A stretch of DNA of 64,000 nucleotides from Acidovorax sp. (GCF_022763525.1 NZ_JALEGG010000087.1:1691-65690); one strand, 5' to 3'; shown: positions 14,711 to 54,813, counted from the stretch's first letter. The notes: a model not told the origin generated them from the letters alone. Translations and numbers: made by a program.

Positions 14711-14774
14711 GCTATATTAAAAGTGCCTCCAGCCCAATCACCACAAGCGCAAGCAGCTAGAAAAAATGTAGCAA
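14711..14774 (-). repeat. SAR repeat copy overlapping the 5' end of the EamA gene
   Basis: The reverse complement reads TTGCTAcattttttcTAGCTGcttGCGCTTgtggtgattgggctgGAGGCActtttaatatagc. It is read in frame as ...AILKVPPAQSPQAQAARKNVA.... Confidence 0.65.
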
Positions 14775-15652
14775 CCGGGCTCGTCCTGGCGCTGCTGGGC
14801 TCCATCGCCTTCAGCGGCAAGGCCATCATCGTCAAGCTGGCGTACCGCTATGGCGTCGATGCGGTCACGCTCATCATGTACCGCATGCTGTTCGCGCTGC
14901 CCATCTTCGCCGTGATGGCATGGTGGGCCAGCCGGGGCCAGCCACCTTTGACTCGCAAGGACTGGCTGGGCGTGCTGGGCCTGGGGCTCACAGGCTACTA
15001 CCTGGCGAGTTTCCTGGACTTCGCCGGGCTGGCCTACATCAGCGCAAGCCTGGAGCGCCTGATCCTGTACCTCAACCCGACGCTGGTGGTCGTGCTGGGC
15101 TGGGTGCTTTACCGGCGCAGCATCACGTGGGGGCAGGCGCTGGGCATGCTCATCAGCTACTGCGGCGTCGTGCTGGTGTTCGGGCATGAGGCCAATCTGC
15201 AGGGCGCCAACGCGGCCTGGGGCACCTTGCTGGTGTTCCTGAGCGCGGTGAGCTATGCCATTTACCTGGTCTACAGCGGCGAAATGGTGCGGCGCCTCGG
15301 CTCGCTGCGGCTCGTGGGCCTGGCCACCTCCGTGGCGTGCCTGCTGTGCCTGTTGCAGTTCGTGTTGCTCCGCCCCCTGAGCGCCGCGGTGGTGGCCCCT
15401 GAGGTGGTCTGGCTGTCCATCCTGAACGCGACGCTGTGCACGGCGGCCCCGGTGCTCATGGTGATGATGGCCATTGAACGCGTGGGTGCGGGCACGACGG
15501 CGCAGACGGGCATGGTGGGGCCCTTGTCGACCATCCTCATGGGCGTGTGGATCCTGGGCGAGCCGTTCACGGTGTGGGTGGCGGCGGGCACGGCGCTGGT
15601 GTTGGCGGGCATTTTCGTGTTCACGCAGATGGCGCGCCGTCAGGCACCGTAG
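14723..15652 (+). CDS. EamA/DMT-family transporter
   Basis: Ten-TM DMT protein (...GLVLALLGSIAFSGKAIIVKLAY...). The start is uncertain. GTG 14723 gives a normal short N-terminus; the track start ATG 14639 adds 28 aa. Confidence 0.7.
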   Translation: MPPAQSPQAQAARKNVATGLVLALLGSIAFSGKAIIVKLAYRYGVDAVTLIMYRMLFALPIFAVMAWWASRGQPPLTRKDWLGVLGLGLTGYYLASFLDFAGLAYISASLERLILYLNPTLVVVLGWVLYRRSITWGQALGMLISYCGVVLVFGHEANLQGANAAWGTLLVFLSAVSYAIYLVYSGEMVRRLGSLRLVGLATSVACLLCLLQFVLLRPLSAAVVAPEVVWLSILNATLCTAAPVLMVMMAIERVGAGTTAQTGMVGPLSTILMGVWILGEPFTVWVAAGTALVLAGIFVFTQMARRQAP

Positions 15653-15673
15653 CCCCCGTCACGTGACATCTGA

Positions 15674-15862
15674 TGCGGATCGCGCGCGGACTGGACCCAC
15701 AGCAGCGACTACGCTGCGAACCACGCCGTGGCCTTCGATGTGGACAGCCGTTACGAACCCGTGCAGGGCCTGCACCGCACCATTCAGCGTTGGGTCTGCA
15801 AGGCACCCCGTGCCTCGGTGATGCTCGCCAAGGGCAAAGAGACCTTCGTCTGGGAGTTTTAG
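15674..15862 (+). pseudogene. Possible gene remnant or small ORF (coding-like frame without an ATG)
   Basis: An open frame reads ...DWTHSSDYAANHAVAFDVDSRYEPVQGLHRTIQRWVCKAPRASVMLAKGKETFVWEF* with GC-rich third positions. The only starts are GTG (15728) or ATG (15821). It ends where LPE copy 2 begins. Confidence 0.25.
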
Positions 15863-15975
15863 GAGCGGCTAACAAAGCTCTTCTGGCGTCGTTGCAGCGT
15901 CTTGCCGTACGACTTCTTGTACTGCCTGCGACGCGGCGCCTCGCCAGAACCACTTCGCTGAGTTTGGTTAGCGCC
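15863..15975. repeat. GC-rich long palindromic element (LPE), copy 2
   Basis: gagcggctaacaaagctc...ggcgtcgttgcagcgtcttgccgtac...ttgtactgcctgcgacgcggcgcc...gagtttggttagcgcc. Lies between the convergent EamA and M48 genes. Confidence 0.7.
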
Positions 15976-16000
15976 AAGTCCGCCGGTGAGGCGGCGTTGC

Positions 16001-17673: not shown

Positions 17674-18504
17674 ATGGATTTGGGTATCGCAGGCAAATGG
17701 GCGCTGGTGTGCGGCGCCAGCAAGGGGCTGGGCTATGGCTGTGCTCAAGCCCTGGTGCGCGAGGGCGTCAATGTGGTCATCAATGCCCGCAATGCGCAGG
17801 CGCTCGAACAGGCTGCTAGCAATTTGGTAGCTGATGCCGCGCTTGCTGCAAGCGCGGGGGGGCAAAAAATTGTCCAACCCCAGGTCGTGGCGGTGGCCGC
17901 CGACATCACCACGGCCGAGGGGCGCGCGGCCGTGTTCTCGGTGCCGGGTGGGCCGGGGCGCGACTTCGACATCGTGGTGACGAACGCGGGTGGCCCGCCC
18001 ACCGGAGATTTTCGCGACTGGGACCGCGATGCCTGGATCAAGGCGGTGGATGCCAACATGCTCACTCCCATCGAGCTGATCCGCGCCACGGTGGACGGCA
18101 TGGCCGCACGGGGCTTCGGGCGCATCGTCAACATCACCTCCAGCGCCGTGAAGGCCCCCATCGACATCCTGGGCCTTTCCAACGGCGCGCGCAGCGGGCT
18201 GACCGGCTTTGTGGCAGGGGTTGCTCGCAGCAAGATTGCCGCGCAGGGCGTAACCATCAACAACTTGCTGCCGGGAAAGTTTGACACCGATCGGCTCGCG
18301 GCCACGGTGGTCGCCGCCGCCGGCAAGTCAGGCAAGTCGGTGGACGATGTCCGCCAGGCCCAGCAGGCCCAGATTCCGGCAGGCCGCTATGGCACCGCGC
18401 AGGAGTTCGGAGCGATCTGCGCCTTCCTGTGCAGCCAGCATGCCGCGTACATGACCGGACAGAACATCCTGGCCGATGGGGGCGCCTACCCAGGCACGTT
18501 CTGA
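17674..18504 (+). CDS. SDR-family oxidoreductase
   Basis: Start moved to ATG 17674 (MDLGIAGKWALVCGASKGLGYG...). Contains an NAGG motif and an SDR fold sequence. A SAR repeat copy sits in the loop after the second beta-strand. Confidence 0.85.
   Translation: MDLGIAGKWALVCGASKGLGYGCAQALVREGVNVVINARNAQALEQAASNLVADAALAASAGGQKIVQPQVVAVAADITTAEGRAAVFSVPGGPGRDFDIVVTNAGGPPTGDFRDWDRDAWIKAVDANMLTPIELIRATVDGMAARGFGRIVNITSSAVKAPIDILGLSNGARSGLTGFVAGVARSKIAAQGVTINNLLPGKFDTDRLAATVVAAAGKSGKSVDDVRQAQQAQIPAGRYGTAQEFGAICAFLCSQHAAYMTGQNILADGGAYPGTF
17813..17872 (+). repeat. SAR repeat copy inside the SDR gene (sense orientation)
   Basis: cTGCTAgcaatttgGTAGCTGatgccGCGCTTGctgCAAGCGCgGGGGGCaaaaaattg. Translated in frame as AASNLVADAALAASAGGQKIV. 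Confidence 0.65.
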
Positions 18505-23880: not shown

Positions 23881-24867
23881 ATGAGCCTTGCCGTCCAGAT
23901 CCGCCAGCACGGTGGACCCGAAGAACTCCACCTCGTCGATGTTCCCGTCGGCGAGCCCGGTCCGGGCGAGGTGCGCATCCGCCACCACGCCATCGGCCTG
24001 AACTTCATCGACGTGTACCACCGCACCGGCCTGTACCCGCTGGGCATGCCAGCCACCATCGGCATGGAGGGCGCGGGCGTGATCGAAGCCGTGGGCGAAG
24101 GCGTCACGCACCTCCAGGTGGGCGACCGGGCTGCCTATGCCAGCAACCCGCCCGGCGCGTACAGCGAGGCGCGCGTGATGCCCGCCAAGTGCGTGTGCAA
24201 GCTGCCCGACGCGATCAGTTTCGAGACCGGCGCAGCCATGATGCTCAAGGGCCTGACGGCGCAGTACCTGCTCAAGAAAACGCTGCCCGTGGAGGGCCTG
24301 CAACCTGGCGACCATGTGCTTTTCCACGCGGCGGCGGGCGGCGTGGGGCTGATTGCCACGCAGTGGGCCAAGGCCCTGGGCCTGCAGCTGATCGCCACTG
24401 CCGGCTCCGACGCCAAATGCCAGCTCGCGCTGGCCAACGGCGCTGCCCATGCCATCAACTATCAGCAGGAAGACTTCGCGGCCCGGGTCAAGGAGATCAC
24501 CGGCGGCAAGGGGGTGAAGGTGGTGTACGACTCGGTGGGCAAGGACACCTGGGACAAGTCGCTCGAGTGCCTTCGCCCCTTTGGCTTGATGGCCAGCTTT
24601 GGCAACGCCTCGGGTCCCGTGCCACCGTTCGCGCCCGGCAGCCTGGGCGCCAAGGGCTCGCTCTACGTCACGCGCCAGACACTGTTCACCCACATCGCCA
24701 CGCGCGAGTCCACCCAGGCCATGGCCGACGACCTGTTCGCCGTGGTGGCCAGCGGCCAGGTCAAGATCCACATCGACCAGCGCTACCCGCTGGCCGAGGT
24801 GCAGCAGGCGCATCGCGACCTGGAGGCACGCAAGACCACGGGCTCCACGATCCTCACACTGTCGTGA
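23881..24867 (+). CDS. qor: NADPH:quinone oxidoreductase (zeta-crystallin/MDR family)
   Basis: Start moved to ATG 23881 (MSLAVQIRQHGGPEELHLVDVPVGEPGPGEVRIRHHAIGLNFIDVY...). AAAGGVG nucleotide-binding motif. Confidence 0.85.
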   Translation: MSLAVQIRQHGGPEELHLVDVPVGEPGPGEVRIRHHAIGLNFIDVYHRTGLYPLGMPATIGMEGAGVIEAVGEGVTHLQVGDRAAYASNPPGAYSEARVMPAKCVCKLPDAISFETGAAMMLKGLTAQYLLKKTLPVEGLQPGDHVLFHAAAGGVGLIATQWAKALGLQLIATAGSDAKCQLALANGAAHAINYQQEDFAARVKEITGGKGVKVVYDSVGKDTWDKSLECLRPFGLMASFGNASGPVPPFAPGSLGAKGSLYVTRQTLFTHIATRESTQAMADDLFAVVASGQVKIHIDQRYPLAEVQQAHRDLEARKTTGSTILTLS

Positions 24868-25682
24868 CTGCCGCGCTGCAAGCCTGGCTGCAGGCGGCGC
24901 GCCAGCGCGCGCAGCAGCCGCCTGCCCAGCCGCGCCTGCCCCTGTGGGTGGCCGGGCAGTCCGTTGGATCGGTGGCGGAGGGGGTTTTGAATGAAATTGG
25001 CCTCCAGCGCTTGAAGGACAAGCGCTATAAGCTATCAAAGCAGGAGCATTCTGCCGGAGTAGCCTGGCACCTGGATGTGCCTGTGGCGGCAGCCACTGAC
25101 GCCCTCAATACCCTGGCTGCCGCGTTGCGCGATGCCGACCTTTGCGGCCCCTGGCGGAGCGAGCAGTTGGCGGTGTGCAACCCGGCGGGCGAGCGTGTGG
25201 CCACGGTGGAGCGCGGTGCCGTGCGTGTGCTGGGCATCTCCACTTCCGCCGTGCACCTGGTCGGCCAGGCGGTGGATGGGCGCATGTGGGTGCAAAGGCG
25301 CGCCCTCACCAAGCCCAACGACCCCGGGCTGTGGGACACGCTGATGGGCGGCATGATCGCCGCCACCGATTCGCTGCAGCAGGCCCTGGTGCGCGAAACC
25401 TGGGAAGAGGCCGGCCTGCGCGTGGCCGACCTGCACCAGGTCTCGCATGGCGGCCACGTGCTTTTCAGCCGCCCCAGCAGCGAAGCCAGCGGCACAGGCT
25501 ACATGGTGGAACGCATCGACTGGTTCCGCGCCACGGTCCCCCAAGGCCTGACGCCTGCCAACCAGGACGGCGAGGTGGACGAGTTCGCGCTGCGCACCCC
25601 TGAAGAGCTGTACGCCCAGGTGGCAGACGGCCGTTTCACGCTGGAAGCCGCGCTGGTGATGGCCGCGCACTGGGGGCTGTAG
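24864..25682 (+). CDS. NUDIX hydrolase (DUF4743-like N-terminus, tentative)
   Basis: GTG start at 24864 overlaps the qor stop (GTGA). NUDIX box ...GGMIAATDSLQQALVRETWEEAGL.... Only the last 272 codons of the 627-aa track ORF are used. Confidence 0.7.
   Translation: MTAALQAWLQAARQRAQQPPAQPRLPLWVAGQSVGSVAEGVLNEIGLQRLKDKRYKLSKQEHSAGVAWHLDVPVAAATDALNTLAAALRDADLCGPWRSEQLAVCNPAGERVATVERGAVRVLGISTSAVHLVGQAVDGRMWVQRRALTKPNDPGLWDTLMGGMIAATDSLQQALVRETWEEAGLRVADLHQVSHGGHVLFSRPSSEASGTGYMVERIDWFRATVPQGLTPANQDGEVDEFALRTPEELYAQVADGRFTLEAALVMAAHWGL
24984..25043 (-). repeat. SAR repeat copy inside the NUDIX gene (antisense orientation)
   Basis: The reverse complement reads cTGCTttGATAGCTtatAGCGCTTGtccttCAAGCGCTgGAGGCCaatttcattcaaaac. 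Translated in frame as VLNEIGLQRLKDKRYKLSKQ. Confidence 0.7.
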
Positions 25683-27774: not shown

Positions 27775-28299
27775 TCAGCGCTCGCGGCGTACGCGCAGGA
27801 ACTCATCCAGGATCAGGCAGGCTGCGCCCACGCTGATGGCCATGTCGGCCACATTGAATGCCGGGAAGTGGCCGCCCGGGAAGATGCCCGAGAGAAACGT
27901 CCAGTGGAAGTCGAGGAAGTCCACCACGTAGCCGTGCATCAACCGGTCCACCACATTGCCCACGGCCCCGCCCAGAATGCTCGACAGCGCGAAGCCGAAG
28001 AGCTTCTGGCCCGGGTGCGCCCGCAGCTGCCACACGATGAACACCGTGGCCGCGAGGCCGATGCCGGTGAACAGCCACCGCTGCCAGCCCCCCGCGTCCT
28101 GCAGGAACGAGAACGCCGCCCCCGTGTTGTGCGCCCGCACGATGTTGAAGAAGCTGGTGATCACCGTGCCATCGCCCAGCTTGTAGTGCTCCAGGATGAG
28201 CGACTTGGTGACCTGGTCGGCCACCAGCAGCAGCACGGCCCAGGCCAGCCAGGGCCACATGCTTGCGCCGGATCGCCCGGCCAGCGACGACCGCGCCAT
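27775..28299 (-). CDS. lspA: Lipoprotein signal peptidase (signal peptidase II)
   Basis: Start moved to ATG 28299 ([10 protein letters not shown]...), which overlaps the ileS stop (ATGA). ...ADQVTKSLI...NTGAAFSFL...VVDFLDF... motifs. Confidence 0.9.
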
Positions 28300-31178
28300 C
28301 AGGCGTGCGCGCGGCTCTCGCCGCTGCCGTAGAGGTTGCTGGTGCAGCGGCCGCACAGGGTGGGGTGCGCGGCATCGTGTCCCACATCGCTGCGGTAGTG
28401 CCAGCAGCGGTCGCATTTCTGGTCGGAACTGGCCTTGACGCTGATCTGGAGAGCGCTACCAGCTACCAATTCAATAGCAGATGTGATGAACACGAATTTC
28501 AGGTCGTCGCCCAGGCTGGTCAGCAACGCATGGTCCTCAGGGGCTGCGGTCAGCACGACATTGGCCTGCAGCGAAGACCCCACCTGACCGGCGGCGCGCA
28601 GGGCCTCGATCTCCTTGTTCACCGCGTCGCGGATCTCGCGCAGGCGGGCCCACTTGGCCAGCAGGCCCTCATCGGCGTGGGCAATGGTGCCGTAGGTTTC
28701 CAGGAAGATGGAGTCGGAGCTGCCGAACACCTTCCACGCCTCTTCGGCCGTGAACGACAGGAACGGCGCCATCCAGCGCAGCATGGCGTGCGTGATCTGG
28801 TAGAGCGCGGTCTGCGCGCTGCGGCGCGCCAGGCTCTTGGGCGCGGTGGTGTACAGGCGATCCTTGAGCACGTCCAGGTAGAAGCCGCCCAGGTCTTCCG
28901 AGCAGTACAGCTGCAGCTTGGCGACCACAGGGTGGAACTCATACACCTTGTAGTGCGCCAGCACCTCGGCCTGGAACTCGGCCGCGCGCGTGAGCGCGTA
29001 GCGGTCGATCTCCAGCATCTGGTCGAAAGGCACGGCGTCCTGGGCGGGGTCGAAGTCGCTCACGTTGGCCAGCAGGAAGCGCAGCGTATTGCGGATGCGG
29101 CGGTAGGCGTCCACCACGCGCGCGAGGATCTTCTCGTCACCGGCGATGTCGCCCGAGTAGTCGCTCGCGGCCACCCACAGGCGGATGATCTCGGCGCCCA
29201 GTTTTTTGTTGATCTCCTGCGGATCGATGCCGTTGCCCAGCGACTTGCTCATCTTGCGGCCCTGGCTGTCCACAGTGAAGCCGTGGGTCAGCAGGCCGCG
29301 ATAGGGCGCGCGGCCTTCGAGGGCCGAGGCCAGCAGCAGCGAGCTGTGGAACCAGCCGCGGTGCTGGTCATGGCCTTCGAGGTACAGGTCGGCCTCGGGG
29401 CCGGTGTCGTGGTGCACGTTCGGGTGCGTGCCGCGCAGCACGTGGCTGAAGGTCGAGCCGGAATCGAACCACACCTCCAGGATGTCGGTGCTCTTGGTGT
29501 AGTGCGGCGCGTCTTCGGCGCCCAGGATCTCTTCCACCGTCACGCGGCTCCAGGCCTCGATGCCGCCCTTTTCCACGATGTCCGCCGCCTGGTCCATGAT
29601 TTCCATGGTGCGCGGGTGCAGTTCGCCCGAATCCTTGTGCAGGAAGAACGGGATGGGCACGCCCCAGCTGCGCTGGCGCGAGATGCACCAGTCCGGCCGC
29701 CCGGCGATCATGTCGTGCAGGCGGGCCTTGCCGTTCTCGGGGTAGAAGCTGGTGTGCTCGATCGCATCCAGCGCGATCTGGCGCAGCGTCTTGGCGGGCT
29801 TCATGCCTGGCTTTGTGAACACGCCTTCGCCTTCGTCCATGCGGATGAACCACTGCGCGGCGGCGCGGTAGATCACCGGCGTCTTGTGGCGCCAGCAGTG
29901 GGGGTAGCTGTGCGTGATGTCCTTGGTGGTCATCAGGCGGCCCGCGTTGCGCAGGGCTTCGATGATGACGGGCACCGCCTTCCAGATGTGCTGGCCGCCA
30001 AACAGCGGGAAGTCGGCCGCATAGGTGCCGTTGCCCTGCACGGGGTTCAGGATCTCGTCGAGCGCCATGCCATGGGCGCGGCAGGAGTTGAAGTCCTCCA
30101 GCCCGTAGGCGGGCGAGGAGTGCACAATACCCGTGCCGTCGTCGGCCGTGGCGTAGTCGGCCAGGTACACGGGCGACAGGCGGCGGTAGCCAAAGCTGCC
30201 GTCTTCGCCCGCCACGTCGTACAGCGGGTGTTCAAACTCGAGACCACCCAGCTTTTCACCGGCGGTGGTGGCGATCACCGTGCCGGTGAGGCCGTAGCGC
30301 TCCAGGCACTGCTCCACCAGCGCTTCTGCCAGCACCAGGTAGCCCTTGGGCGTGTCCACCAGCGCGTACATCAGCGTGGGGTTCAGGTTCAGCGCCTGGT
30401 TGGCGGGGATGGTCCAGGCCGTGGTGGTCCAGATGACGATGAAGGCGTCCTTGGCCAGGGCAGGTGCGCCGAAGGCTGCGGCCAGCTTGGCGGGCTCGTG
30501 CGCCTTGAAGGCCACATCCAGCGTGGTGCTCTTCTTGTCCTGGTATTCGATCTCGAACTCGGCCAGCGACGAGCCGCAGTCGAAGCACCAGTACACGGGC
30601 TTCAGGCCGCGATATACGAAGCCCCGCTCCATCACGCGCTTGAACGCGCGGATCTCGCCCGCCTCGTTGGCGGGGTTCATGGTCTTGTAGGGGTTGTCCC
30701 ATTCGCCCAGCACACCCAGGCGCTTGAAATCGTCCATCTGCTGCGCGATCTGCTCGGTGGCATAGGCGCGGCTCTTGGCCTGCATGTCGTCGCGGCTGAG
30801 GTTGCGGCCGTGTTTCTTCTCGATGGCGTTTTCGATCGGCAGGCCGTGGCAGTCCCAGCCCGGCACGTACAGCGCATCAAAGCCTTCGAGCTGGCGCGCC
30901 TTGGTGATCATGTCCTTCAGGATCTTGTTGACCGCGTGGCCCATGTGGATCTGGCCGTTGGCATAGGGAGGGCCGTCGTGCAGGATGAACTTGGGGGCGC
31001 CGCAGCGGGCATCGCGCAGGCGCTTGTACAGGCCCTTGTCTTCCCATTCCTTCACCCATCCCGGCTCGCGCTTGGGCAGGTCGCCGCGCATGGGGAAGGA
31101 GGTATCGGGCAGGTTCAGCGTGCTGCGGTAGTCAGCGGCTGAGGTGGTGGATGCGGTGCTGGCGTTGTCGTCGGACAT
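28299..31178 (-). CDS. ileS: Isoleucine--tRNA ligase
   Basis: Start moved to ATG 31178 (MSDDNAST...[18 protein letters not shown]...). HMGH (HIGH-type) and KMSKS motifs. C-terminal Zn knuckles CDRCWHY...CGRC. Confidence 0.97.
28427..28480 (-). repeat. SAR repeat copy inside ileS (sense orientation)
   Basis: The reverse complement reads cTGCTATtgaattgGTAGCTGgtAGCGCTctccagatcAGCGtcAAGGCCagtt. By eye, 23 of 27 identities to the intergenic copy at 40558 over the 5' part. Translated as [18 protein letters not shown] just before the Zn-binding motif. Confidence 0.7.
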
Positions 31179-31458: not shown

Positions 31459-32667
31459 TTACTGTAACGTCTTCGAGAGCCCTTCATCCCGGGCCACCAG
31501 GGCGGCGGCAAGCGCGACGGGGTAGTTCAGCAGATGCGATCCCGCCATCAGCGCCTGCCTCAGCACCGGTTGCAGGGTGGGCTCTCGACCGTCCATTCGC
31601 AAGAGGCTCAGCGAACCCTGGGCGCCATGGCTCAGCCACAGGCTGCGGCCGTCGCCTGCCAGTGCGGCGCCTCGCACGTTGTCGACCGGGGTGACGAGGG
31701 ATAGCGACTGGTCGTCCAGGCGCCAGAAGGTCAGCAAACCAGGGGTCGGGTGCGTCACCACGGCCAAGCCCTCGCGGGGAAGCACTGCGATGCTCAGGGC
31801 CTCTCCCAGCAGGCGAGGGGCGAGGTCCTGCACGGACGGCAGGCCCCGCAAGGTGGTTTCGCTTCGCTGGCACCAGCTGACACTTCCCGCGTGGTCCACG
31901 CCCAGCCCGAGCCGGGGGGCGGAAGCGATCACTGCGGTGTTGTCAGAGACCGGCGCCATGTGCCCGGTGTTGAAAGCCGAGCCCGACATCTCATGGCGAT
32001 CCAGCAGTCGGCGCGTTTTCACATCGATGTAGCTGACGCAGGGGGCCGGATCTTCTCCTGCGGCCCCGCCGCCGTTGGTCACGGCCAGCACCCGCCCACC
32101 TTCCACCAGATGACAGTCGTGCGGACGGGCCCCGAAACTCGGGAAGTCGCCGAGGTAACGCAGGGTGCTGGCGTCACGCATGCCGATAAAGCCCCGCCCC
32201 TGCGCGTCGGACTCTGTGCTGAGCAGCAGTCCTCCGTCATCGGCGAGCACGCCATGACCATAGAACTGCCTCTGCTCGAAAGGAGCGATGGTTTGCACAA
32301 ACCGTTGTTGCTCCAGGTCGAAAACCCCGGCCCCGGGGCCGTGCTTTTCAAAAAAGAATGCCCGGGTCTTCTGGCGGACGTCCAGTGCCCAGCCATGGGG
32401 AAAGAACGGGGACTCGATCAGGCGTGCGCCTTGCACTTGCAGGCTGGCGTAGGCCAAGGCGGTTTTGTGAGGGGCTCCAGCACGCTCCTGGTAGCGGCAC
32501 CCGGCAAACAACTGGTCGCCTTGCATGGCGGGCGACATTGCGGCCGCTGAGGTAGGGGTGCTGCGGGATGCCATGGAGACTGGGAGAAGGGTGCAACCCA
32601 TTGCGTGGGCAAGAAGGCTGCGCCGGTTGATTTGGGGGCGGACAGGGGGTTGAATCAGGTGGCGCAT
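31459..32667 (-). CDS. DUF1513 domain-containing protein (Tat-signal, beta-propeller-like)
   Basis: 402-aa ORF with the Tat-like motif NRRSLL near the N-terminus. DUF1513-like sequence ...FFPHGWALD...FYGHGVL.... Confidence 0.65.
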   Translation of the reverse strand: MRHLIQPPVRPQINRRSLLAHAMGCTLLPVSMASRSTPTSAAAMSPAMQGDQLFAGCRYQERAGAPHKTALAYASLQVQGARLIESPFFPHGWALDVRQKTRAFFFEKHGPGAGVFDLEQQRFVQTIAPFEQRQFYGHGVLADDGGLLLSTESDAQGRGFIGMRDASTLRYLGDFPSFGARPHDCHLVEGGRVLAVTNGGGAAGEDPAPCVSYIDVKTRRLLDRHEMSGSAFNTGHMAPVSDNTAVIASAPRLGLGVDHAGSVSWCQRSETTLRGLPSVQDLAPRLLGEALSIAVLPREGLAVVTHPTPGLLTFWRLDDQSLSLVTPVDNVRGAALAGDGRSLWLSHGAQGSLSLLRMDGREPTLQPVLRQALMAGSHLLNYPVALAAALVARDEGLSKTLQ

Positions 32668-32727: not shown

Positions 32728-33741
32728 TCAACCCGGGGCTTGGGTGTTGTCTATCCCCAGCGGCGGGTTTCGCCGAGTCTCAAAATGCTGGCGGGCCTGG
32801 ATGCAATCCCGGGCAATCCCCTCCTTCAGCGCATCCAGGCTCGGGTACTTGAGTTCATCGTGCAGCTTGTGGAGTAGTTCCACATGGACGATCTTGCCGT
32901 AGGCATCGTCTGCGCCCAGGTGTTCGGGCCAGTCCAAACAGTGGGTCTCCAGGAGCACCCGCCCTCCATTCACATCGTCGGGGTCCAGGGAGGGCCGCAC
33001 GCCCAGGTTGGCCACTCCGGGTAGCGGACGGTCCGTGAGGCCTTGCACGCTGACGGCAAAAATGCCACTGGCGGCGGGTTTCCAATGGCTGAACCGCATG
33101 TTCAGCGTGCGAAATCCCAACTCGCGCCCCAGCTTGCGGCCGTGCACCACATGCCCGCTGATCGTGTACGGCCGCCCCAGCAACCTCGCTGCGGCCTCCA
33201 TGTCGCCGGCTGCCAGGGCCTGGCGGACGGCGGAGCTGGATACGCGCAGTCCGTGCACCTCGTAGCTGTTCATGCGGGCCACATCAAAGCCCTTTGCCTG
33301 CCCAGCGGCGTCCAGCATGGCGTAGTCGCCTGCGCGCTGGCGGCCAAAGCGGAAGTCATCGCCCACCAGCACGTAGCGGGCTCCCAAGCCCTGGATCAGC
33401 ACGTCCTGGATAAACGCTTCCGGGGATTGGGCGGCCAGCTTGGCATCAAAAGGCAGCACCACCGTTTGCTGAACGCCGCAGCGCCGCAGTTCGGTCAGCT
33501 TGTCTCGCAAGGTTCCGATGCGTGCGGGTGCCAGTTCAGGCTTGTGCAGGGCGCCGGCGAAGTAGTCGCGCGGATGCGGCTCGAATGTCAGCACGCAGCT
33601 CTCCACGCCCCGATGCGCGGCCTCGCTGTTCAGCAGGGCCAGCATGGCTTGGTGCCCCCGATGCACACCATCGAAATTACCGATGGTCAACGCACAGGCA
33701 TCCGCAATGCCAGGGTGGTGAAATCCGCGAAAGATCTTCAT
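32728..33741 (-). CDS. ribF: Bifunctional riboflavin kinase / FAD synthetase
   Basis: MKIFRGFHHP...LTIGNFDGVHRGHQAML.... The C-terminal riboflavin kinase domain contains PTLN-like ...GFRTLNM.... Confidence 0.95.
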   Translation of the reverse strand: MKIFRGFHHPGIADACALTIGNFDGVHRGHQAMLALLNSEAAHRGVESCVLTFEPHPRDYFAGALHKPELAPARIGTLRDKLTELRRCGVQQTVVLPFDAKLAAQSPEAFIQDVLIQGLGARYVLVGDDFRFGRQRAGDYAMLDAAGQAKGFDVARMNSYEVHGLRVSSSAVRQALAAGDMEAAARLLGRPYTISGHVVHGRKLGRELGFRTLNMRFSHWKPAASGIFAVSVQGLTDRPLPGVANLGVRPSLDPDDVNGGRVLLETHCLDWPEHLGADDAYGKIVHVELLHKLHDELKYPSLDALKEGIARDCIQARQHFETRRNPPLGIDNTQAPG

Positions 33742-33744
33742 CGG

Positions 33745-33804: not shown

Positions 33805-33908
33805 ATGAAAACGGAGTATATTGTGATCTACGGCTGTCCCTGCGCAGGGCTGCCCGCGAGACTCCGCGTTCCGAATCCTTGTGTACTTTGTGTTCCAGGA
33901 GGCGTGTT

Positions 33909-37230: not shown

Positions 37231-38412
37231 TCAGCCGAGGACGGTCTGAGCCACGATGTTGCGCTGCACTTCGTTGGAGCCGCCGTAGATGGTGGTCTTG
37301 CGCAGGTTGAAGTAGGTGGACGCCAGCGGCGCGTTGGCGGTGACGCCGCCCGGGAAGTTGCCCTGCCAGCCGGCTTCCATGGCTTCTTCGATGAAGGGCA
37401 GGCTGAACGGGCCGGCGGCCAGCATCATCAGCTCGGCATAGCGCTGCTGGATCTCGCTGCCCTTGATCTTGAGCAGCCCTGCGATGTCGAGCGAGTTCTT
37501 GCCGCTCTTCTCGGCCGAGAGCACGCGCAGCACCAGCATCTCCAGCGCCACGATGTCCACTTCCAGCAGGGCGATCTGGTCGCGGAAACGTACGTCGTCC
37601 CAGACGCCTTCGGCCCTGGCGATGCGCTTGAGGCGCTCCAGCTCGCGCTTGCTGCGGTTCACGTCGGCGATGTTGGTGCGCTCGTGGCTGAGCAGGTGCT
37701 TGGCGTAGGTCCAGCCCTTGTTTTCTTCGCCGATCAGGTTCTCGGCGGGCACTTCGACGTTGTCGAAGAACACCTCATTGACTTCGCACTCGCCGTCCAG
37801 CAACTTGATGGGGCGCACGGTGACGCCCTTGGACTTCATGTCGAGCAGCAGGAAGGAGATGCCGGTCTGGGGCTTGCCCTCGGTGCTGGTGCGCACCAGG
37901 TTGAACATCCAGTCGCCGTACTGCCCAAGGGTCGTCCAGGTCTTCTGGCCGTTGACGATGTACTTGTCGCCCACGCGTTCGGCGCGGGTCTTGACGCTGG
38001 CCAGGTCCGAGCCCGAGCCCGGTTCGCTGTAGCCCTGGCTCCACCAGACCTCGCCGCTGGCGATGCCGGGCAGGAAGCGCTTTTGCTGCTCGGCATTGCC
38101 AAACGCCATGATCACCGGCGCCACCATCACGGGCCCGAAGGGCACGATGCGCGGCGCACCCGCCAGTGCGCATTCTTCTTCGAACAGGTGCTTTTGCACG
38201 GCCGTCCAGCCCGGCCCGCCAAATTCCTTGGGCCAGCCGAAACCCAGCCACCCCTTCTTGCCCAGGATCTTGGCCCAACCCTGCAGGTCGTCGCGGGTCA
38301 GGCGCAGGGCGTTGTGCACCTTGTGCGAAATTTCTTTCGGTAGATTGGCTTGAACCCAGGCGCGAATTTCCTCGCGGAAGGCCTGTTCTTCGGGGGTGAA
38401 TGCGAGATCCAT
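37231..38412 (-). CDS. Acyl-CoA dehydrogenase
   Basis: Start moved to ATG 38412 (MDLAFTPEEQAFREEIRAWV...). ...WWSQGYSEPGSGSDLAS...GQKTWTT... ACAD motifs. Confidence 0.9.
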   Translation of the reverse strand: MDLAFTPEEQAFREEIRAWVQANLPKEISHKVHNALRLTRDDLQGWAKILGKKGWLGFGWPKEFGGPGWTAVQKHLFEEECALAGAPRIVPFGPVMVAPVIMAFGNAEQQKRFLPGIASGEVWWSQGYSEPGSGSDLASVKTRAERVGDKYIVNGQKTWTTLGQYGDWMFNLVRTSTEGKPQTGISFLLLDMKSKGVTVRPIKLLDGECEVNEVFFDNVEVPAENLIGEENKGWTYAKHLLSHERTNIADVNRSKRELERLKRIARAEGVWDDVRFRDQIALLEVDIVALEMLVLRVLSAEKSGKNSLDIAGLLKIKGSEIQQRYAELMMLAAGPFSLPFIEEAMEAGWQGNFPGGVTANAPLASTYFNLRKTTIYGGSNEVQRNIVAQTVLG

Positions 38413-38458
38413 CGGTTTGTCTCCAAATGATCCCGCAGTTGTAGCACGGTCGTTCGTT

Positions 38459-39145
38459 TTAGTCCTGTCCGGGTGGTGACATGGCGGGGTCAATGCCCAG
38501 TTCGGAACACAGGCGCTGCACAGTGGCCTGCAAGGCCGCCACTTGGCTTTCGAGGGCTTCCACGCGGGCCTGCAGCGCGGGCGAGGCACCGCCGCTGGCC
38601 GGTGCCGGCACGCTGGCGCGGGTGTCGACTGCTCCGCAAAGCAGGTGCGCCCAGCGCGGCTCGCGGGCACCGGGGGCGCGAGGCAGCAGGGTAACCAACG
38701 GTCCGCCTTTCTCGGCGCTGCGTTCCTGCAGCTCATCCAGAAACGCCTCCACCGAGGAAATGTCCGCAAACCGGTACCAGCGCTCCGCATTGATGCGCAG
38801 CTCGCCCGCTGTTTGAGGGCCGCGCAGCATCAACAGGCCCAGCAGCACGGCCGATTGCTCGGGCACCCCCACGCCGCGCTGGAAGTTGTGCTCCCAGCGG
38901 GTGGTGCGGTTGCCGCTGGTCTCGAACGCCAGCGTCAGGAGCTTGAGCGAATCCAGCGCCTCCTGCACCTCGCTCTCGCTCAGGTTCATCACCGGATCGC
39001 GGCTGGTCTTCTGGTTGCAGCCGGTGACCAGCGCGTTAAGCGACATGGGATAGCTGTCGGGCACGGTGCGGGCCTTCTCCATCAGGGTGGCGAGCACGCG
39101 GGCTTCGGCGGGCGTGAGGGGGCGGGTGGTTGGATCGAAGGGCAC
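38459..39145 (-). CDS. yceH: DUF480 (YceH) family protein
   Basis: ...[52 protein letters not shown]... The start is uncertain. GTG 39145 is preferred because ATG 39172 would overlap the divergent purN start. Confidence 0.75.
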
Positions 39146-40364: not shown

Positions 40365-40555
40365 ACGGCCTCCTGCACACGGTTGGCAAGGGGCTCTGCA
40401 GGCGGCGCGCGCTGGCAGCCGCAGAAAGCCCTGTCGGCAACATACGTCGGCCGGGGCGCGGGCTGTGTAGGAAGCGGCCAAACCCCGGGGTAGGTGGCAT
40501 CAACGCAAGGTGCGACAGGCCGGGGACCTTTGCGGTCGGAAAAGCGGCCGGAGTG

Positions 40556-40613
40556 ATTGCTATTGAAATGCTAGCTGTTGACGCATTTCGTATAAGCGCT
40601 AAAGGCCGTTTTC
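40556..40613 (+). repeat. SAR repeat, well-conserved intergenic copy
   Basis: aTTGCTATtgaaatgcTAGCTGttgaCGCAtttcgtatAAGCGCTaAAGGCCgttttc. It abuts the stop codon of the DUF1653 gene. Confidence 0.75.
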
Positions 40614-40863
40614 AAGAATTTTCGTCATCGCTGCATTTCTCGAACCGCGGCCGCATCGTGCCATCGATGAGCACCTGCTCTTCAAACATGGCCGCAGGCC
40701 GCACCCACAGCCCCCGCTCGCCGTAGAGCGCGCGGTAGAGCGTCATGGGCTCCAGGGTCTCGCTGTGGCGCACGGTGTCCAGAACCTCGTAGAGCATGCC
40801 CTTGTAGTGGCGGTATCTGCCCGGCGGTGTGCGGATGAGGGCGGGAAGATCGTCGTCGTTCAT
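40612..40863 (-). CDS. DUF1653 domain-containing protein
   Basis: 83 aa with ...GRYRHYKGMLYEVLDTVRHSETLEPMTLYRALYGERGLWVRPAAMFEE.... Confidence 0.8.
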   Translation of the reverse strand: MNDDDLPALIRTPPGRYRHYKGMLYEVLDTVRHSETLEPMTLYRALYGERGLWVRPAAMFEEQVLIDGTMRPRFEKCSDDENS

Positions 40864-42883: not shown

Positions 42884-44158
42884 ATGCATCCCAAAGTTCT
42901 CCTCGACGCCTGCGCCGAACTCATCAGGCTCACTCTCACGTTTGAACACCCCGCCGACGCGGTGGTGTCACGCTTCTTTCGCGACAACCGCGGCCTGGGC
43001 CCGCGCGAGCGCGCCACCCTGGCCGAGACGGTCTACACCGTTCTGCGCAAGAAGCTGCTGTTCGACCACATGGCGCCCTCCGGCTCGGGCCCCAAGGAGC
43101 GCCGCCTGGCCATCCTGGGCTTCCATGGCCCGCGCGACTTTCTCAAGAGCGCGCTGACCGAGCAGGAGAAGAAATGGCTCGACCAGTGCGACGCCGTTAC
43201 GGCCGACGACCTGATGGAGCGGCACCGCCACAACCTGCCCGAATGGCTGGTGAAACCCCTGAAGGACCAGGTGGGAGACGGTTTCTGGCCGTTGGTGGAA
43301 AGCCTGGCTCAGAGCGCTCCGCTGGACTTGCGCGTCAACGCGCTCAAGGACAAGCGTGCCGACGTGCAAAAGGAGCTTGCCAAGGCCGGCATCCAGGCCA
43401 TGCCCACACCGTATTCGCCCTGGGGCCTGCGCATTGACGGCAAGCCGGCGCTGACCAAGCTTGATGCGTTCACGCGCGGGGCCGTCGAAGTGCAGGACGA
43501 AGGCTCGCAATTGCTGGCTCTGCTGCTCGATGCCAAGCGGGGCGAAATGGTCGTGGATTTCTGCGCCGGAGCCGGCGGCAAGACACTGGCCATTGGCGCC
43601 AGCATGCGCAACACCGGTCGCTTGTATGCGTTTGATGTCTCGGCGCACCGCCTGGATGCGCTCAAACCCCGGCTGGCGCGTAGCGGCCTGTCCAATGTGC
43701 ACCCGGCCGCCATCGCCCACGAACGCGACGAGCGCGTGAAACGGCTGGCGGGGAAGATCGATCGCGTTCTGGTGGATGCCCCGTGCTCCGGCCTGGGGAC
43801 GCTGCGGCGCAACCCCGACCTCAAATGGCGCCAGTCACCGAAGGCCATCGAAGAGCTGGTGGCCAAGCAGACCGCCATCCTGGCCAGTGCCGCGCGCCTG
43901 CTCAAGCCCGGCGGCCGCCTGGTGTATGCCACCTGCAGCATCTTGCCCCAGGAAAACGAGGCCATCGCGGAGGCCTTCAGCGCATCGCACCCCGACTTTG
44001 AGCTGCTGGACGCTGGGGCCGTGCTGCAACAGCTCAAGGTAGAGGGTGCCGCGGGTCTGTGCAGCGGTGGCGAGACGGGCGGCAGATACCTGCGCCTGTG
44101 GCCCCATGTGCATCAGACGGACGGGTTTTTTGCGGCAATCTGGACAAAAAAGCCCTGA
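42884..44158 (+). CDS. RsmB/NOP-family SAM-dependent RNA cytosine-C5 methyltransferase
   Basis: 424 aa with DFCAGAGGKT and DAPCSGLGTLRRNPD motifs, plus ATCS in the C-terminal part. Confidence 0.8.
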   Translation: MHPKVLLDACAELIRLTLTFEHPADAVVSRFFRDNRGLGPRERATLAETVYTVLRKKLLFDHMAPSGSGPKERRLAILGFHGPRDFLKSALTEQEKKWLDQCDAVTADDLMERHRHNLPEWLVKPLKDQVGDGFWPLVESLAQSAPLDLRVNALKDKRADVQKELAKAGIQAMPTPYSPWGLRIDGKPALTKLDAFTRGAVEVQDEGSQLLALLLDAKRGEMVVDFCAGAGGKTLAIGASMRNTGRLYAFDVSAHRLDALKPRLARSGLSNVHPAAIAHERDERVKRLAGKIDRVLVDAPCSGLGTLRRNPDLKWRQSPKAIEELVAKQTAILASAARLLKPGGRLVYATCSILPQENEAIAEAFSASHPDFELLDAGAVLQQLKVEGAAGLCSGGETGGRYLRLWPHVHQTDGFFAAIWTKKP

Positions 44159-52671: not shown

Positions 52672-52733
52672 CGGGCCGGCTGGCTGGCCACGACAAGCCG
52701 GCCGGGCCCGCATCCCCAGATCAGGAGTTTCTG

Positions 52734-53366
52734 TTGAAAAAGATCGCCACTGCAATTTTGATAGCTGCTGCCGCAAGCGTAGCAAGCGCTGACGGCCTTA
52801 AAAGCCTGGAGTCCTTCATGAAGGGCACACAGACCGGCAAGGCGGATTTCACGCAGACGGTGACCTCGCCGCCGAAGGATGGGCAGGCCGCGCGCACCAA
52901 GACATCCAGCGGCAGCTTCGAGTTCCAGCGACCCAACCGCTTCAAGTTCGCCTACAGGAAGCCGTTCGAGCAGATCATCGTGGCCGACGGGCAAACGCTG
53001 TGGCTGTACGACGTGGATCTGAACCAGGTCACGCAGCGCTCGCAGTCGCAAGCCCTGGGCACCACACCCGCTGCATTGCTCGCGTCGGCCCCCGACCTGT
53101 CGGCGCTCAAGGCCGAGTTCGCGCTGGAAAACGCCCCCGACCAGGACGGTCTGCAGTGGGTGCAGGCCACGCCCAAAACCAAGGATGGTCAGCTCAAGAG
53201 CGTGCGCGTGGGCTTTGCGGGTGAGCAGCTCGCGGCCCTGGACATCCTGGACAGCTTTGGCCAGCGCTCGCTGATTCGCTTTACCGGCATGCAGGCCAAT
53301 GCGACGCTGCCTGCAGGCAGCTTCCAGTTCAAGCCGCCAGCCGGGGCGGATGTGGTGAAGCAGTAG
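52734..53366 (+). CDS. lolA: Outer-membrane lipoprotein carrier protein LolA
   Basis: TTG start at 52734 with AGGAG 6 nt upstream gives the signal peptide (M)KKIATAILIAAAASVASA|DG. The mature part is LolA-like (...FTQTVTS...LWLYDVDLNQVTQR...). An alternative ATG at 52668 overlaps the ftsK stop. Confidence 0.85.
   Translation: MKKIATAILIAAAASVASADGLKSLESFMKGTQTGKADFTQTVTSPPKDGQAARTKTSSGSFEFQRPNRFKFAYRKPFEQIIVADGQTLWLYDVDLNQVTQRSQSQALGTTPAALLASAPDLSALKAEFALENAPDQDGLQWVQATPKTKDGQLKSVRVGFAGEQLAALDILDSFGQRSLIRFTGMQANATLPAGSFQFKPPAGADVVKQ
52750..52805 (+). repeat. SAR repeat copy encoding the LolA signal peptide (sense orientation)
   Basis: cTGCAattttGATAGCTGctgccGCaagcgtagcAAGCGCTgaCGGCCttaaaagc. 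Translated as AILIAAAASVASADGLKS. Confidence 0.65.
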
Positions 53367-53369
53367 CGT

Positions 53370-53427
53370 TTTGCTTCAAAAAACATAACTGTCAGCGCTT
53401 GCTGGCTGGGCGATTGAGGCATTTTTC
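53370..53427 (+). repeat. SAR repeat, intergenic copy between lolA and rarA
   Basis: tTTGCTTcaaaaaacATAACTGtcaGCGCTTgctggctgggcgatTGAGGCatttttc. Confidence 0.6.
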
Positions 53428-53463
53428 GCTTGAAAGCCTGACGTAGACAGGATCCACTCCAAC

Positions 53464-54813
53464 ATGGCAACACGCAGTGCCTCCACCCCCGCGGCGATGC
53501 ATGCCCCCGCCCACCAGCCCCTGGCGGAGCGCCTGCGGCCCCGCACGCTCGGCGAGGTGATCGGCCAGCAGCATGTGCTGGGCCCGGGCATGCCGCTGCG
53601 GCTGGCCTTTGAATCGGGCCGCCCGCACAGCTGCATCCTGTGGGGCCCGCCGGGCGTGGGCAAGACGACCATCGCGCGGCTGATGGCCGATGCGTTCGAC
53701 GCACAGTTCATCAGCATCAGCGCCGTGCTGGGCGGGGTCAAGGACATCCGCGAGGCGGTCGAACGTGCCGAGGCGGCGCGCGACGGGCTGATGCAGCAGC
53801 GCACGATCGTCTTCGTGGATGAAGTGCACCGCTTCAACAAGAGCCAGCAAGATGCCTTCTTGCCGCATGTGGAGAGCGGGCTGTTTACCTTCATTGGGGC
53901 AACCACCGAAAACCCGTCGTTCGAGGTGAACTCGGCGCTGCTGTCACGCGCTGCCGTGTACGTGCTGCAGCCGCTGTCCGAACAGGATCTGAAGCAAATA
54001 GTGGCTCTGGCGCAGGCAGAGAAAGCGCTGCCAGCTATCGAAGATGTAGCAATCGATCGCTTGGTGGCCTATGCCGATGGCGATGCCCGCAGATTGCTCA
54101 ACACACTCGAAACCCTGGCCATGGCGGCCACGCAGGAGAAGCTGACCGAGATCACCGACACCTGGCTCCTCAAGGTGCTGGGCGAGCGCATGCGCCGCTA
54201 CGACAAGGGCGGCGAGCAGTTCTACGACACCATCAGCGCGCTGCACAAGTCGGTGCGCGGCTCCGACCCCGATGCTGCGCTGTATTGGCTGGTGCGCATG
54301 CTCGACGGAGGTGCCGACCCGCGCTACATGGCCCGCCGTTTGGTGCGCATGGCCAGCGAAGACATTGGCCTGGCAGACCCGCGCGCGCTGCGCCTGGCGC
54401 TGGACGCCAGCGAGGTGTACGAACGACTGGGCAGTCCTGAAGGGGAACTGGCCTTGGCTGAATGCGTGGTGTATCTGGCCGTGGCACCCAAGTCCAACGC
54501 CGTCTACAAAGCCTACAACGCGGCCCGTGCCTGGGTGAAGCAGGACGGCACCCGCCCGGTGCCGATGCACCTTCGCAATGCACCAACGCAGCTCATGAAA
54601 CAGCTCGACTACGGCAAAGGCTACCGTTACGCGCACGACGAAGAGGGAGGCTTTGCGGCGGGCGAAAACTACCTGCCGGAGGGGATGCCGGAGCCCGGTT
54701 TCTACGTGCCAGTGGAGCGCGGACTCGAAATCAAGATCGCACACAAATTGCGTGAGTTGCGTGCTCGCAATGCTTCCGCGGATTCCGCGGGCATTGCCAG
54801 CGAAGAGTCTTGA
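53464..54813 (+). CDS. rarA: Replication-associated recombination protein A (MgsA/RarA AAA+ ATPase)
   Basis: Walker A GPPGVGKTT, DEVHRFNK, and the C-terminal MgsA domain ...YDKGGEQFYDTISALHKSVRGSD.... Confidence 0.93.
   Translation: MATRSASTPAAMHAPAHQPLAERLRPRTLGEVIGQQHVLGPGMPLRLAFESGRPHSCILWGPPGVGKTTIARLMADAFDAQFISISAVLGGVKDIREAVERAEAARDGLMQQRTIVFVDEVHRFNKSQQDAFLPHVESGLFTFIGATTENPSFEVNSALLSRAAVYVLQPLSEQDLKQIVALAQAEKALPAIEDVAIDRLVAYADGDARRLLNTLETLAMAATQEKLTEITDTWLLKVLGERMRRYDKGGEQFYDTISALHKSVRGSDPDAALYWLVRMLDGGADPRYMARRLVRMASEDIGLADPRALRLALDASEVYERLGSPEGELALAECVVYLAVAPKSNAVYKAYNAARAWVKQDGTRPVPMHLRNAPTQLMKQLDYGKGYRYAHDEEGGFAAGENYLPEGMPEPGFYVPVERGLEIKIAHKLRELRARNASADSAGIASEES
53994..54054 (-). 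repeat. SAR repeat copy inside rarA (antisense orientation)
   Basis: The reverse complement reads gaTTGCTAcatcttcGATAGCTGgcaGCGCTTtctctgcctGCGCcAGAGCCactatttgc. Translated in rarA as QIVALAQAEKALPAIEDVAI. Confidence 0.65.

Follow-up and report, generated by a model that had tools for sequence, protein, structure and literature searches.

Rickettsia palindromic elements (RPEs), reportedly described by Ogata et al. in 2000, are among the closest described parallels to the repeat analysed here, an AT-rich element of about 65–70 nt that is present in exactly 11 copies in a 64-kb stretch of Acidovorax DNA (GCF_022763525.1 NZ_JALEGG010000087.1:1691-65690; this whole stretch of 64,000 nt is called the window below). 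Like RPEs and the intragenic copies of repetitive extragenic palindromic (REP) elements (Di Nocera et al. 2013, PMC3733652), it is a dispersed palindromic repeat found within intact open reading frames (ORFs), including that of a tRNA synthetase, it is seen only in stop-free frames and its copies are common to related species. Unlike these elements, which are net insertions of about 20–50 residues, the repeat lies in five host genes that have no repeat-sized indel and whose residues beneath it are homologous to those of repeat-free relatives; a single copy, in a gene of the SDR family, behaves as an insertion in the manner of an RPE.

Uptake signal sequences (USS, Pasteurellaceae) and DNA uptake sequences (DUS, Neisseriaceae) occur about once per kb; unlike these, which have a core of 9–12 bp and no hairpin, the repeat is about 65 nt long, has two palindromic modules and is found about once per 6 kb of the window. 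It resembles them in being over-represented, in both orientations, with a large share of copies in ORFs, in particular frames and at tolerant residues (PMC2817400), and also in appearing to be built by substitution rather than inserted, in its clade dialects and in having transformable hosts with apparently selective uptake (PMC4212676). A motif that lies mostly inside genes, and is hyper-abundant there, is likewise known in HIP1 (GCGATCGC) of cyanobacteria (Xu et al. 2018, PMC5861425), which is reported as maintained by selection and whose function was long obscure; the repeat is unlike this methyltransferase-linked 8-bp palindrome, present about once per gene, in being eight times longer, rarer and structured. 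With REPs, REPINs and their REP-associated tyrosine transposases (RAYTs), and with miniature inverted-repeat transposable elements (MITEs), it shares intergenic copies that are discrete, hairpin-forming, AT-rich relative to the genome, chromosomal, slow and clade-specific (PMC3733652, PMC3184786). REPs and REPINs are, however, 20–40 nt long, extragenic and often arranged as inverted pairs beside a RAYT gene, whereas the repeat measures 65–70 nt, has at least six of its 11 window copies in genes and is always single. The terminal inverted repeats, target duplications and presence/absence polymorphism of MITEs are not seen in it, and a Pfam scan of 18 ORFs of the window brought up no gene of the transposase type, with no search for a RAYT made in a complete genome. 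By analogy, the mechanism looks most like that of uptake sequences and HIP1, being written by substitution and kept at synonymous sites, and the unit itself looks like a REP or a small structured repeat.

An earlier note on this DNA had read the genic copies as a mobile element that landed in genes as an RPE does, and their peptides as innocuous linkers. We instead think it probable that the intragenic copies were built in place and did not land, and that a DNA-level force holds in them the spelling of an old chromosomal repeat of the Comamonadaceae.

The repeat family in the window

The window has a GC content of 62–70% (about 66%) and belongs to Acidovorax. Its IleRS is 93% identical to the IleRS of Acidovorax radicis and A. 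facilis, and an identical RarA protein occurs on at least 21 public contigs; the window is therefore a chromosomal segment of a common Acidovorax species.

An nhmmer profile built only from three clearly intergenic window copies (59925–60004, 40549–40624 and 33736–33814) recovered all seven copies that the earlier note had listed, with E-values from 5e-11 (NUDIX) to 4e-3 (rarA), and picked up one further intergenic copy, beyond which the scores fall sharply. A weight matrix built solely from 21 intergenic copies of other species gave 11 window sites above 10 bits (range 20.9–78.8) and none elsewhere among 128,000 positions, the 99.99th percentile of which is −0.7; the maximum over 20 block-shuffled windows is −2.1. 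By both measures the seven listed copies exist and are members of one family, and the peptides quoted for them are present in the translations. The four other sites are intergenic. Seven of the copies lie on the plus strand and four on the minus strand, with at least six in coding sequence in this window, and across the window and 80 related loci the motif is over-represented in both orientations and in coding as well as non-coding DNA. Every window copy is single, with no inverted dimers, and the spacing is irregular, with three copies inside 1.3 kb and none within the first 14.7 kb.

The resemblance to the repeat lies in codon choice and not only in the peptide, because none of 20,000 synonymous resamplings, in which the host peptide was fixed and codons were redrawn from the codon usage of the window, attained the observed score at any of the seven copies (the SDR copy was scored by split alignment). 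Of the AT-rich islands, 58 of which were listed for the window, none away from the 11 repeat sites scores as a copy, and the same host sites score as repeat copies in other genera. Neither Rfam at gathering thresholds nor a tRNA scan gave a match for the repeat, and a search of open-access papers and preprints for the motif strings, for Comamonadaceae repeats and for RAYTs or REPINs in these genera found no published description of the family.

Intergenic copies are discrete units of about 65–70 nt with unrelated, GC-rich flanks. Their layout is TGCTAT-N6-7-(G/A)TAGCTG, then a hairpin, AGCGCTTaT-loop-AtAAGCGCT, and then GGAGGCC-aATTT...AAA. GCTAT and ATAGC are reverse complements and make up a second palindrome, GCTAT-N7-ATAGC, so that (A/G)TAGC sits 5–6 nt ahead of the hairpin of about 9 bp within a unit of 65–70 nt. 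Conservation is strongest in TTGATAGC, GCGC and AAGCGC, and with their flanks the conserved stretches cover about 65 nt. At the borders of 22 intergenic copies, neither terminal inverted repeats nor target duplications were evident. RNAalifold gave no consensus structure on 101 copies; a two-hairpin structure named by hand has modest support, with 66.7% of cells paired compared to 25–43% in slid-partner controls, and with 50 further pair types as stem covariation compared to 43.9 in shuffles (0 of 500 shuffles reach 50). Promoter and terminator scans of two intergenic copies showed no recurring signal.

The earlier note had drawn attention to the few reading frames that the genic copies use. 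This restriction is real, only stop-free frames being used, and it is explained by the stop codons that the other frames carry. Among 24 intergenic copies, 11 have no stop in the sense frame ..LIAASA.., in which all three sense copies are read, and eight have none in the antisense frame ..ALAAI.., in which three copies are read; a third sense frame has a stop in every one of the 24. The NUDIX copy is in the antisense frame ..IGL-stop-RLFNKR-stop-QL.., and its two stops read Q and Y there. Since any gene-preserving process would give the same frame pattern, the restriction is uninformative on mechanism.

Host residues and codon spelling beneath the copies

The relatives compared were 80 Comamonadaceae loci with 10-kb flanks, obtained from an IleRS scan. 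This cross-genus comparison covers ileS, the acyl-CoA dehydrogenase gene, the NUDIX gene and rsmB, and rarA, lolA, SDR and EamA were compared with Acidovorax relatives (85–100% identical) and with distant PDB homologues; the relatives listed by protein search were at least 92% identical for RarA and at least 85% identical for SDR.

No repeat-sized indel was found in IleRS, acyl-CoA dehydrogenase or NUDIX across 24–80 Comamonadaceae orthologues. The ileS segment is identical in length in 73 of 80 orthologues, and the seven exceptions are longer, none shorter. It aligns residue for residue with Variovorax (SAVELAAGDNLSAQVTASSATKC) and Castellaniella (SAARAVAGDGDLRIDVRATTHEKC); against the Gram-positive IleRS structures 8C9F and 1FFY, the window IleRS is 8–9 aa shorter here, and ..s.lev.eg.. 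aligns to ..saielvag... The acyl-CoA dehydrogenase has no indel in the segment in 46 of 47 orthologues and is gapless against PDB 6WY8. These alignments speak against a foreign linker peptide, and the absence of a repeat-sized indel in the testable hosts against a landed element, the exception being SDR. The NUDIX segment has the same length as in most genera (Polaromonas, Ramlibacter and several others), and two motif-free Acidovorax metagenome-assembled genomes have a 6-residue deletion in it. RarA shows small gaps in the window protein and no insertion relative to E. coli MgsA (3PVS), and the lolA copy is a signal peptide of normal form.

The ileS site itself clearly tolerates real insertions: at precisely the repeat position, the IleRS of one Acidovorax metagenome-assembled genome (L016, about 12690–12870) has about 33 extra, unrelated residues, and three other loci (L037, L040 and L082) have insertions of 5–11 residues at the same position.

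In rsmB, an in-place copy is found in Simplicispira and Giesbergeria (L015 3372–3434 and L017 866–926), and the matching window stretch (43283–43462) and the other loci are without it; the length is identical in all 28 loci that span the segment. The bearers read ELAQAAIK, with a GC content at third codon positions (GC3) of 0.65–0.73, where the window reads ELAKAGIQ, and the central residues KRPxVQKELA are ancestral. The two states differ by about 10–12 mostly synonymous changes, counted from the codon rows, and in the bearers a Gly codon, GGC, has become an Ala codon, GCT, as in acyl-CoA dehydrogenase. At the level of aligned sequences, these comparisons show the repeat overlaid in place on homologous residues, with no change in length, in ileS, acyl-CoA dehydrogenase, NUDIX and, in relatives, rsmB, and they are consistent with such an overlay in rarA and lolA. 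The earlier note's caveat that a copy might have replaced a variable segment of similar length comes closer than insertion; the residues are largely ancestral, however, hence re-coding rather than replacement.

As read from the alignments, relatives without the repeat encode the same or similar residues in GC-rich codons. The ileS bearers (Acidovorax, Simplicispira, Giesbergeria, Polaromonas, Rhodoferax, Hylemonella and Ottowia) spell TCn GCT ATy GAA TTr rTA GCT GGT AGC GCn, with a segment GC3 of 0.3–0.7 compared to 0.7–0.9 in the remaining C-terminal region compared. Variovorax, Ramlibacter and Hydrogenophaga spell GCC GTC GAG CTG GCG GCC GGC, with a GC3 of 0.86–1.0, and the segment has a GC3 of 0.89 in two Acidovorax metagenome-assembled genomes, i.e., close relatives can lose the spelling. 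In the acyl-CoA dehydrogenase gene, bearers from six genera have in common GAG GCA AAA GC. ... GCT A.. AAA A.C ATA GTA, and the usual Gly (GGC; SGTK in 6WY8) is Ala (GCT) in 10 of 10 bearers. The A/T-ending codons thus persist against a strong GC3 bias (about 0.85–0.9).

This persistence was measured as the share of the window's rare A/T-ending codons that have the same third base in other genera where the residue is unchanged. Retention is 66% within the element and 30% elsewhere in the gene for ileS, 87% and 41% for acyl-CoA dehydrogenase, and 75% and 21% for NUDIX; it is higher inside than outside in 30 of 31 pairwise comparisons, which are not independent since the lineages are related. 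Loci whose ileS segment scores as a copy have 1.7 other copies on average, compared to 0.32 in the rest (Mann–Whitney p = 3e-6, again among related lineages). Spelling that is kept at synonymous sites across genera, and lost in lineages with few or no other copies in their sampled loci, suggests that the DNA itself is recognised genome-wide. The choice of host sites, moreover, seems arbitrary (a variable stretch ahead of a zinc finger, a signal peptide, a segment of a beta-domain and an N-terminal domain), and the sites are used in both orientations, which points to a position-independent signal rather than a local job. The earlier note had held that homologous residues without an indel, in ordinary GC-rich codons, would make the resemblance coincidental. 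Such residues and codons are indeed found in Variovorax, Ramlibacter and Hydrogenophaga, but the conclusion of coincidence is wrong, because several genera have the spelling in common, it goes with the presence of the family in a genome, and synonymous sites keep it.

The copies change little between species. Four of five copies, namely those of SDR, lolA and rarA and an intergenic one, are common to the window and A. delafieldii (88–92% protein identity), and there is no new copy in 19 kb. Just three Comamonadaceae megaplasmids have copies, one or two each, and no copy was found in phage records. The static copies, scarce on plasmids and absent from phages, indicate a slow, chromosomal, vertically inherited family and not an active mobile element. 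The 3′ hairpin arm also differs by lineage: it reads AAGCGCT throughout the Acidovorax clade and AAGGGCT in Polaromonas and Rhodoferax, a dialect that is the same at the ileS, NUDIX, acyl-CoA dehydrogenase and intergenic copies (L050, L054, L075 and L085 compared to the Acidovorax loci, at few sites). The copies upstream of ribF keep AAGCGCT, and those of Variovorax have a GCGCCC..GGGC hairpin. As far as these few sites go, the dialect is as expected if one recognition specificity, that of a co-evolving trans-acting reader, or homogenisation acts on all copies.

The eleven copies and their surroundings

Five copies lie inside Pfam-supported coding sequence (SDR, NUDIX, IleRS, acyl-CoA dehydrogenase-like and RarA), and the sixth genic copy is that of lolA. 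The earlier note had placed all seven listed copies in intact ORFs; this holds for these six, which are in real coding sequence with open frames, whereas the EamA-proximal copy is probably a 5′ leader or N-terminal tail and not a secure intragenic copy. The positions given were also right, except that the ileS copy spans 28413–28482 and does not begin at 28427.

The EamA-proximal copy (14707–14776, minus strand; 45 bits, nhmmer E 3e-6) is upstream of the EamA transporter gene or at its 5′ end, in the interval that separates the first transmembrane helix from the stop codon (14548) of a gamma-glutamyltranspeptidase gene. The part of the long ORF that precedes the copy has a GC3 of about 0.6, as read from the sequence, and GTG at 14723 is a possible start. 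No alignment of this region is possible with A. delafieldii, in which EamA begins 10 codons ahead of the first helix. The SDR copy (17811–17880, plus strand; 20.9 bits) lies in sense orientation in the gene at 17674–18504, covers residues of about 47–69 counted from ATG 17674 and has a resampling p of 0 both overall and for the 5′ core; its TTGrTAGCTG core and GGCCAAA are retained in A. delafieldii. The NUDIX copy (24982–25051, minus strand; 74.9 bits) is near-canonical and antisense, in the N-terminal region of the gene at about 24861–25682, some 41 codons past the start. It occurs in Acidovorax, Simplicispira and Verminephrobacter and, more weakly, in Polaromonas and Ramlibacter.

The ileS copy (minus strand; 36 bits) is in sense orientation in the gene at 28299–31178 (minus strand), between the anticodon-binding domain and the C-terminal zinc finger, just before the finger and 120–190 nt upstream of lspA. 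The next copy (33744–33813, plus strand; 56.8 bits) is intergenic, between the divergent ribF (start 33741, minus strand) and an HNH endonuclease gene (33909–34466; Pfam HNH_5), and starts about 5 nt past the start codon of ribF. No other copy is as widely conserved: an orthologous one is present in most of the 80 loci and, weakly, even in Variovorax. Between ribF and ileS the window also has a DUF1513 gene (31459–32667, minus strand). The distance from the ribF-upstream copy to the ileS start is about 1.17 kb in A. radicis and A. facilis and 2.56 kb in the window, so that, from the spacing, the DUF1513 gene appears to be a lineage-specific insertion.

The acyl-CoA dehydrogenase copy (36739–36808, plus strand; 38 bits) is antisense, in the middle domain of the gene at 36091–37206 (minus strand). 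This smaller acyl-CoA dehydrogenase-like gene adjoins another, at 37231–38790, also on the minus strand. It has no Pfam match to the middle domain, and its best matches are the actinobacterial 6WY8 and 4X28, which we take to be subunits of heteromeric alpha2-beta2 enzymes. A further intergenic copy lies at 40555–40624 (plus strand; 56.6 bits, nhmmer E 1e-15).

The lolA copy (52745–52814, plus strand; 27.4 bits), in sense orientation, encodes the LolA signal peptide in the gene at 52733–53366. The gene starts at TTG 52733 and not at ATG 52668; the TTG follows a CAGGAG ribosome-binding site, at which conservation with A. delafieldii (91% identity) begins exactly, and it yields a canonical signal peptide, MKKIATAILIAAAASVASA. 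The A. delafieldii call is 210 aa long and keeps the signal peptide, and automated calls on six contigs start LolA at ATG 52818, giving 182 aa with the signal peptide lost; the AT-rich copy probably misleads the prediction of the start. Between lolA and rarA lies an intergenic copy (53369–53438, plus strand; 51 bits) with an orthologous copy in A. delafieldii. The rarA copy (53985–54054, minus strand; 45.2 bits) is antisense, at the junction of AAA+ core and lid in the gene at 53464–54813, and is conserved in A. delafieldii. The most canonical copy of the window (59931–60000, plus strand; 78.8 bits, nhmmer E 3e-19) is intergenic, with unrelated, GC-rich flanks.

A gene for a T2SSE-family ATPase with an MshEN domain (PilB/MshE type, by Pfam) lies at 7310–9106, in the first 14.7 kb, which is free of repeat copies; no pilC or pilD is evident beside it. 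The window also has a second, unrelated GC-rich repeat of about 100 nt (9147–9247, 15881–15981 and 54928–55028; 62–77% identity), with an internal inverted repeat, GGCGTCGTTGCAGCG ... GCCTGCAACGCAGCGCC, in each copy; all three copies lie outside the genes examined, as judged from ORF lists and Pfam-supported gene ends. Two adjacent inverted repeats (6818–6845 with 7062–7089, 28 nt and 96% complementary; 7086–7120 with 7217–7251, 35 nt and 83%) both begin with CTAG and are AT-rich, and may be remnants of small mobile elements.

Several candidate roles for the repeat were dropped. Likeness to sigma-54, FNR, IHF, DnaA-box and OxyR sites, sought by eye on the consensus, failed on spacing or key bases. 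Copies as promoter or leader modules abutting start codons were set aside since Pfam puts the true starts further off: in ORF 60001 the PhoU_div domain begins at residue 183, and in ORF 28416 the LspA domain begins at residue 60. A regularly spaced site marking topological domains is contradicted by the clustered copies and the copy-free first 14.7 kb, and a GC3-phase classifier of coding and intergenic copies proved too noisy with 150-nt flanks.

Candidate mechanisms and their consequences

If the copies were built in place, sites whose residues are already compatible with one of the repeat's stop-free translations (in sense, ..A-I-x-L-(I/V)-A-x-S-A..; in antisense, ..A-(L/A)-A-A-I-K..) would be re-coded, mostly by synonymous A/T-ward substitutions and by a few conservative replacements, e.g., Gly to Ala. 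A trans-acting machinery would recognise the DNA sequence genome-wide, and better matches would be favoured where the protein tolerates them. Our leading specific guess for the driver, a speculative one that we rate as possible and no higher, is an uptake-sequence-like drive of the USS or DUS type, because Acidovorax and Verminephrobacter are naturally transformable and uptake is apparently selective. Competent cells would preferentially take up and recombine fragments that carry the repeat; that the repeat is itself a self-recognition (DNA-uptake) signal of naturally transformable Comamonadaceae, e.g., Acidovorax and Verminephrobacter, we hold to be rather unlikely. Type IV pilus-dependent natural transformation has been described in A. 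temperans, A. facilis and Verminephrobacter eiseniae (Davidson et al. 2014, PMC4212676), with no uptake sequence known in these hosts, and heterologous DNA competes poorly, lowering transformation only about 10-fold at a 100–1500-fold excess. Known uptake sequences lie largely in ORFs (34.5–65%), in particular frames and at poorly conserved residues (Findlay & Redfield 2009, PMC2817400).

Several points weigh against copies built in place. For rarA, lolA and SDR the comparison is with close Acidovorax relatives and distant PDB homologues. The SDR protein is 12 aa longer than the Burkholderia structures 5VPS, 5IDX and 5VA8 exactly at the copy; it is the only host gene with extra length, in a loop that varies by −3 to +3 aa within Acidovorax. 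The window has the EamA-proximal copy and A. delafieldii does not, the intergenic region concerned being rearranged, and this copy and that of SDR may be ordinary insertions into a leader and a loop. The pairwise and Mann–Whitney tests draw on related lineages and are not independent samples, and the trans-acting factor is a putative one. Others weigh against the uptake version in particular. A. delafieldii bears the repeat, yet is not transformable in the published assay, and DNA of other Acidovorax, which share the repeat, failed to transform A. temperans (PMC4212676), although recombination barriers could lie behind this failure. The repeat, with about 65 nt, palindromic modules and weak stem covariation, also differs from known uptake sequences, which have cores of 9–12 bp, about 30 bp with flanks, and no hairpin, and its density is about one-sixth of theirs.

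The main rival holds that the repeat is a REP-like element with local cis roles, as a site for gyrase, IHF or a nucleoid protein, as an mRNA-stability hairpin or as an internal or antisense promoter, each copy being kept by ordinary purifying selection. REP–RAYT systems are vertically inherited and slow, which suits the behaviour of this family. The two palindromic modules, with (A/G)TAGC shortly ahead of the hairpin of about 9 bp, resemble GTAG-tagged REPs (PMC3733652), the stem shows some covariation, conservation of the ribF-upstream copy extends across the family, even to Variovorax, and the ileS copy lies shortly upstream of lspA. Local roles fit poorly, however, with host sites that look arbitrary and are used in both orientations (antisense in the middle of acyl-CoA dehydrogenase and at the NUDIX N-terminus, and in a signal peptide), with irregular spacing, and with the lack of a recurring promoter or terminator signal in the two intergenic copies scanned, of an Rfam family and of an RNAalifold consensus. 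Moreover, REPs are overwhelmingly extragenic, whereas at least six of the 11 copies are genic, and the copies are all single with no inverted dimers. We consider this rival improbable, though it fares best among those weighed.

Patch replacement would differ from gradual re-coding in that ectopic gene conversion or template switching writes an intergenic copy over a partly similar coding segment in one event, with later homogenisation. The many substitutions clustered in 60–70 nt (the 10–12 or so differences in rsmB), the dialect common to genic and intergenic copies and the replacement caveat already raised in the earlier note all suit it. However, homologous recombination normally needs identity far above the approximately 60% that pre-exists here. 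The residues are also largely ancestral and not the translation of the element (KRPxVQKELA in rsmB; the ileS segment compared to SAVELAAGDNLSAQV), and orthologous genic copies keep what is particular to their gene, for example CAGATnAGCGTCAAG..CCAGTTC throughout the ileS copies, rather than the family consensus. This makes a one-step patch quite unlikely.

Less likely still is an RPE-like selfish insertion, in which a mobile palindromic element inserts in frame and only harmless, stop-free insertions survive. Intragenic REP and RPE insertions are documented in other bacteria (PMC3733652), the intergenic copies here are discrete with sharp, GC-rich flanks, the SDR loop has its 12 extra residues exactly at the copy and is length-variable within Acidovorax, and the EamA-proximal copy is missing from A. 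delafieldii. Against this, insertion is refuted for five host genes (ileS, acyl-CoA dehydrogenase, NUDIX, rarA and rsmB), which have no repeat-sized indel; beneath the copies lie residues homologous to those of repeat-free relatives and distant PDB homologues; and the copies are static from one species to the next, very rare on plasmids and missing from phages, with no terminal inverted repeats or target duplications evident at their borders. Such insertion survives only for SDR and perhaps for the EamA-proximal copy. Coincidence, in which Ala/Leu/Ile-rich peptides in AT-rich codons merely resemble the repeat, gains something from codon positions 1 and 2 of AIELVAGSA-type peptides, which match part of the core, and from the NUDIX synonymous resamples, which average +27 bits, but is excluded for practical purposes by the resampling and the weight-matrix scan with its shuffled maximum of −2.1, and by the fact that only the AT-rich islands at the 11 repeat sites score, and do so at the same sites in other genera.

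If the copies were indeed built in place, a 65-nt overlay on essential genes, retained by several genera, would mean that a DNA-level signal outweighs codon bias and sometimes residue preference, an override documented so far only for very short motifs (USS, DUS and HIP1). For annotation, this would mean that AT-rich, repeat-like islands in the GC-rich genes of the Comamonadaceae are not insertions or pseudogene scars, and that they can mislead start calls, as in lolA. Should the uptake reading also be true, uptake sequences would be known from a third bacterial family, the Comamonadaceae, whose signal would be the first that is long and contains a hairpin, and the uptake-biased molecular drive would have the strength to re-code essential proteins and to displace a glycine that otherwise prevails. 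The repeat is a concrete candidate for the sequence selectivity of natural transformation in Acidovorax and Verminephrobacter.

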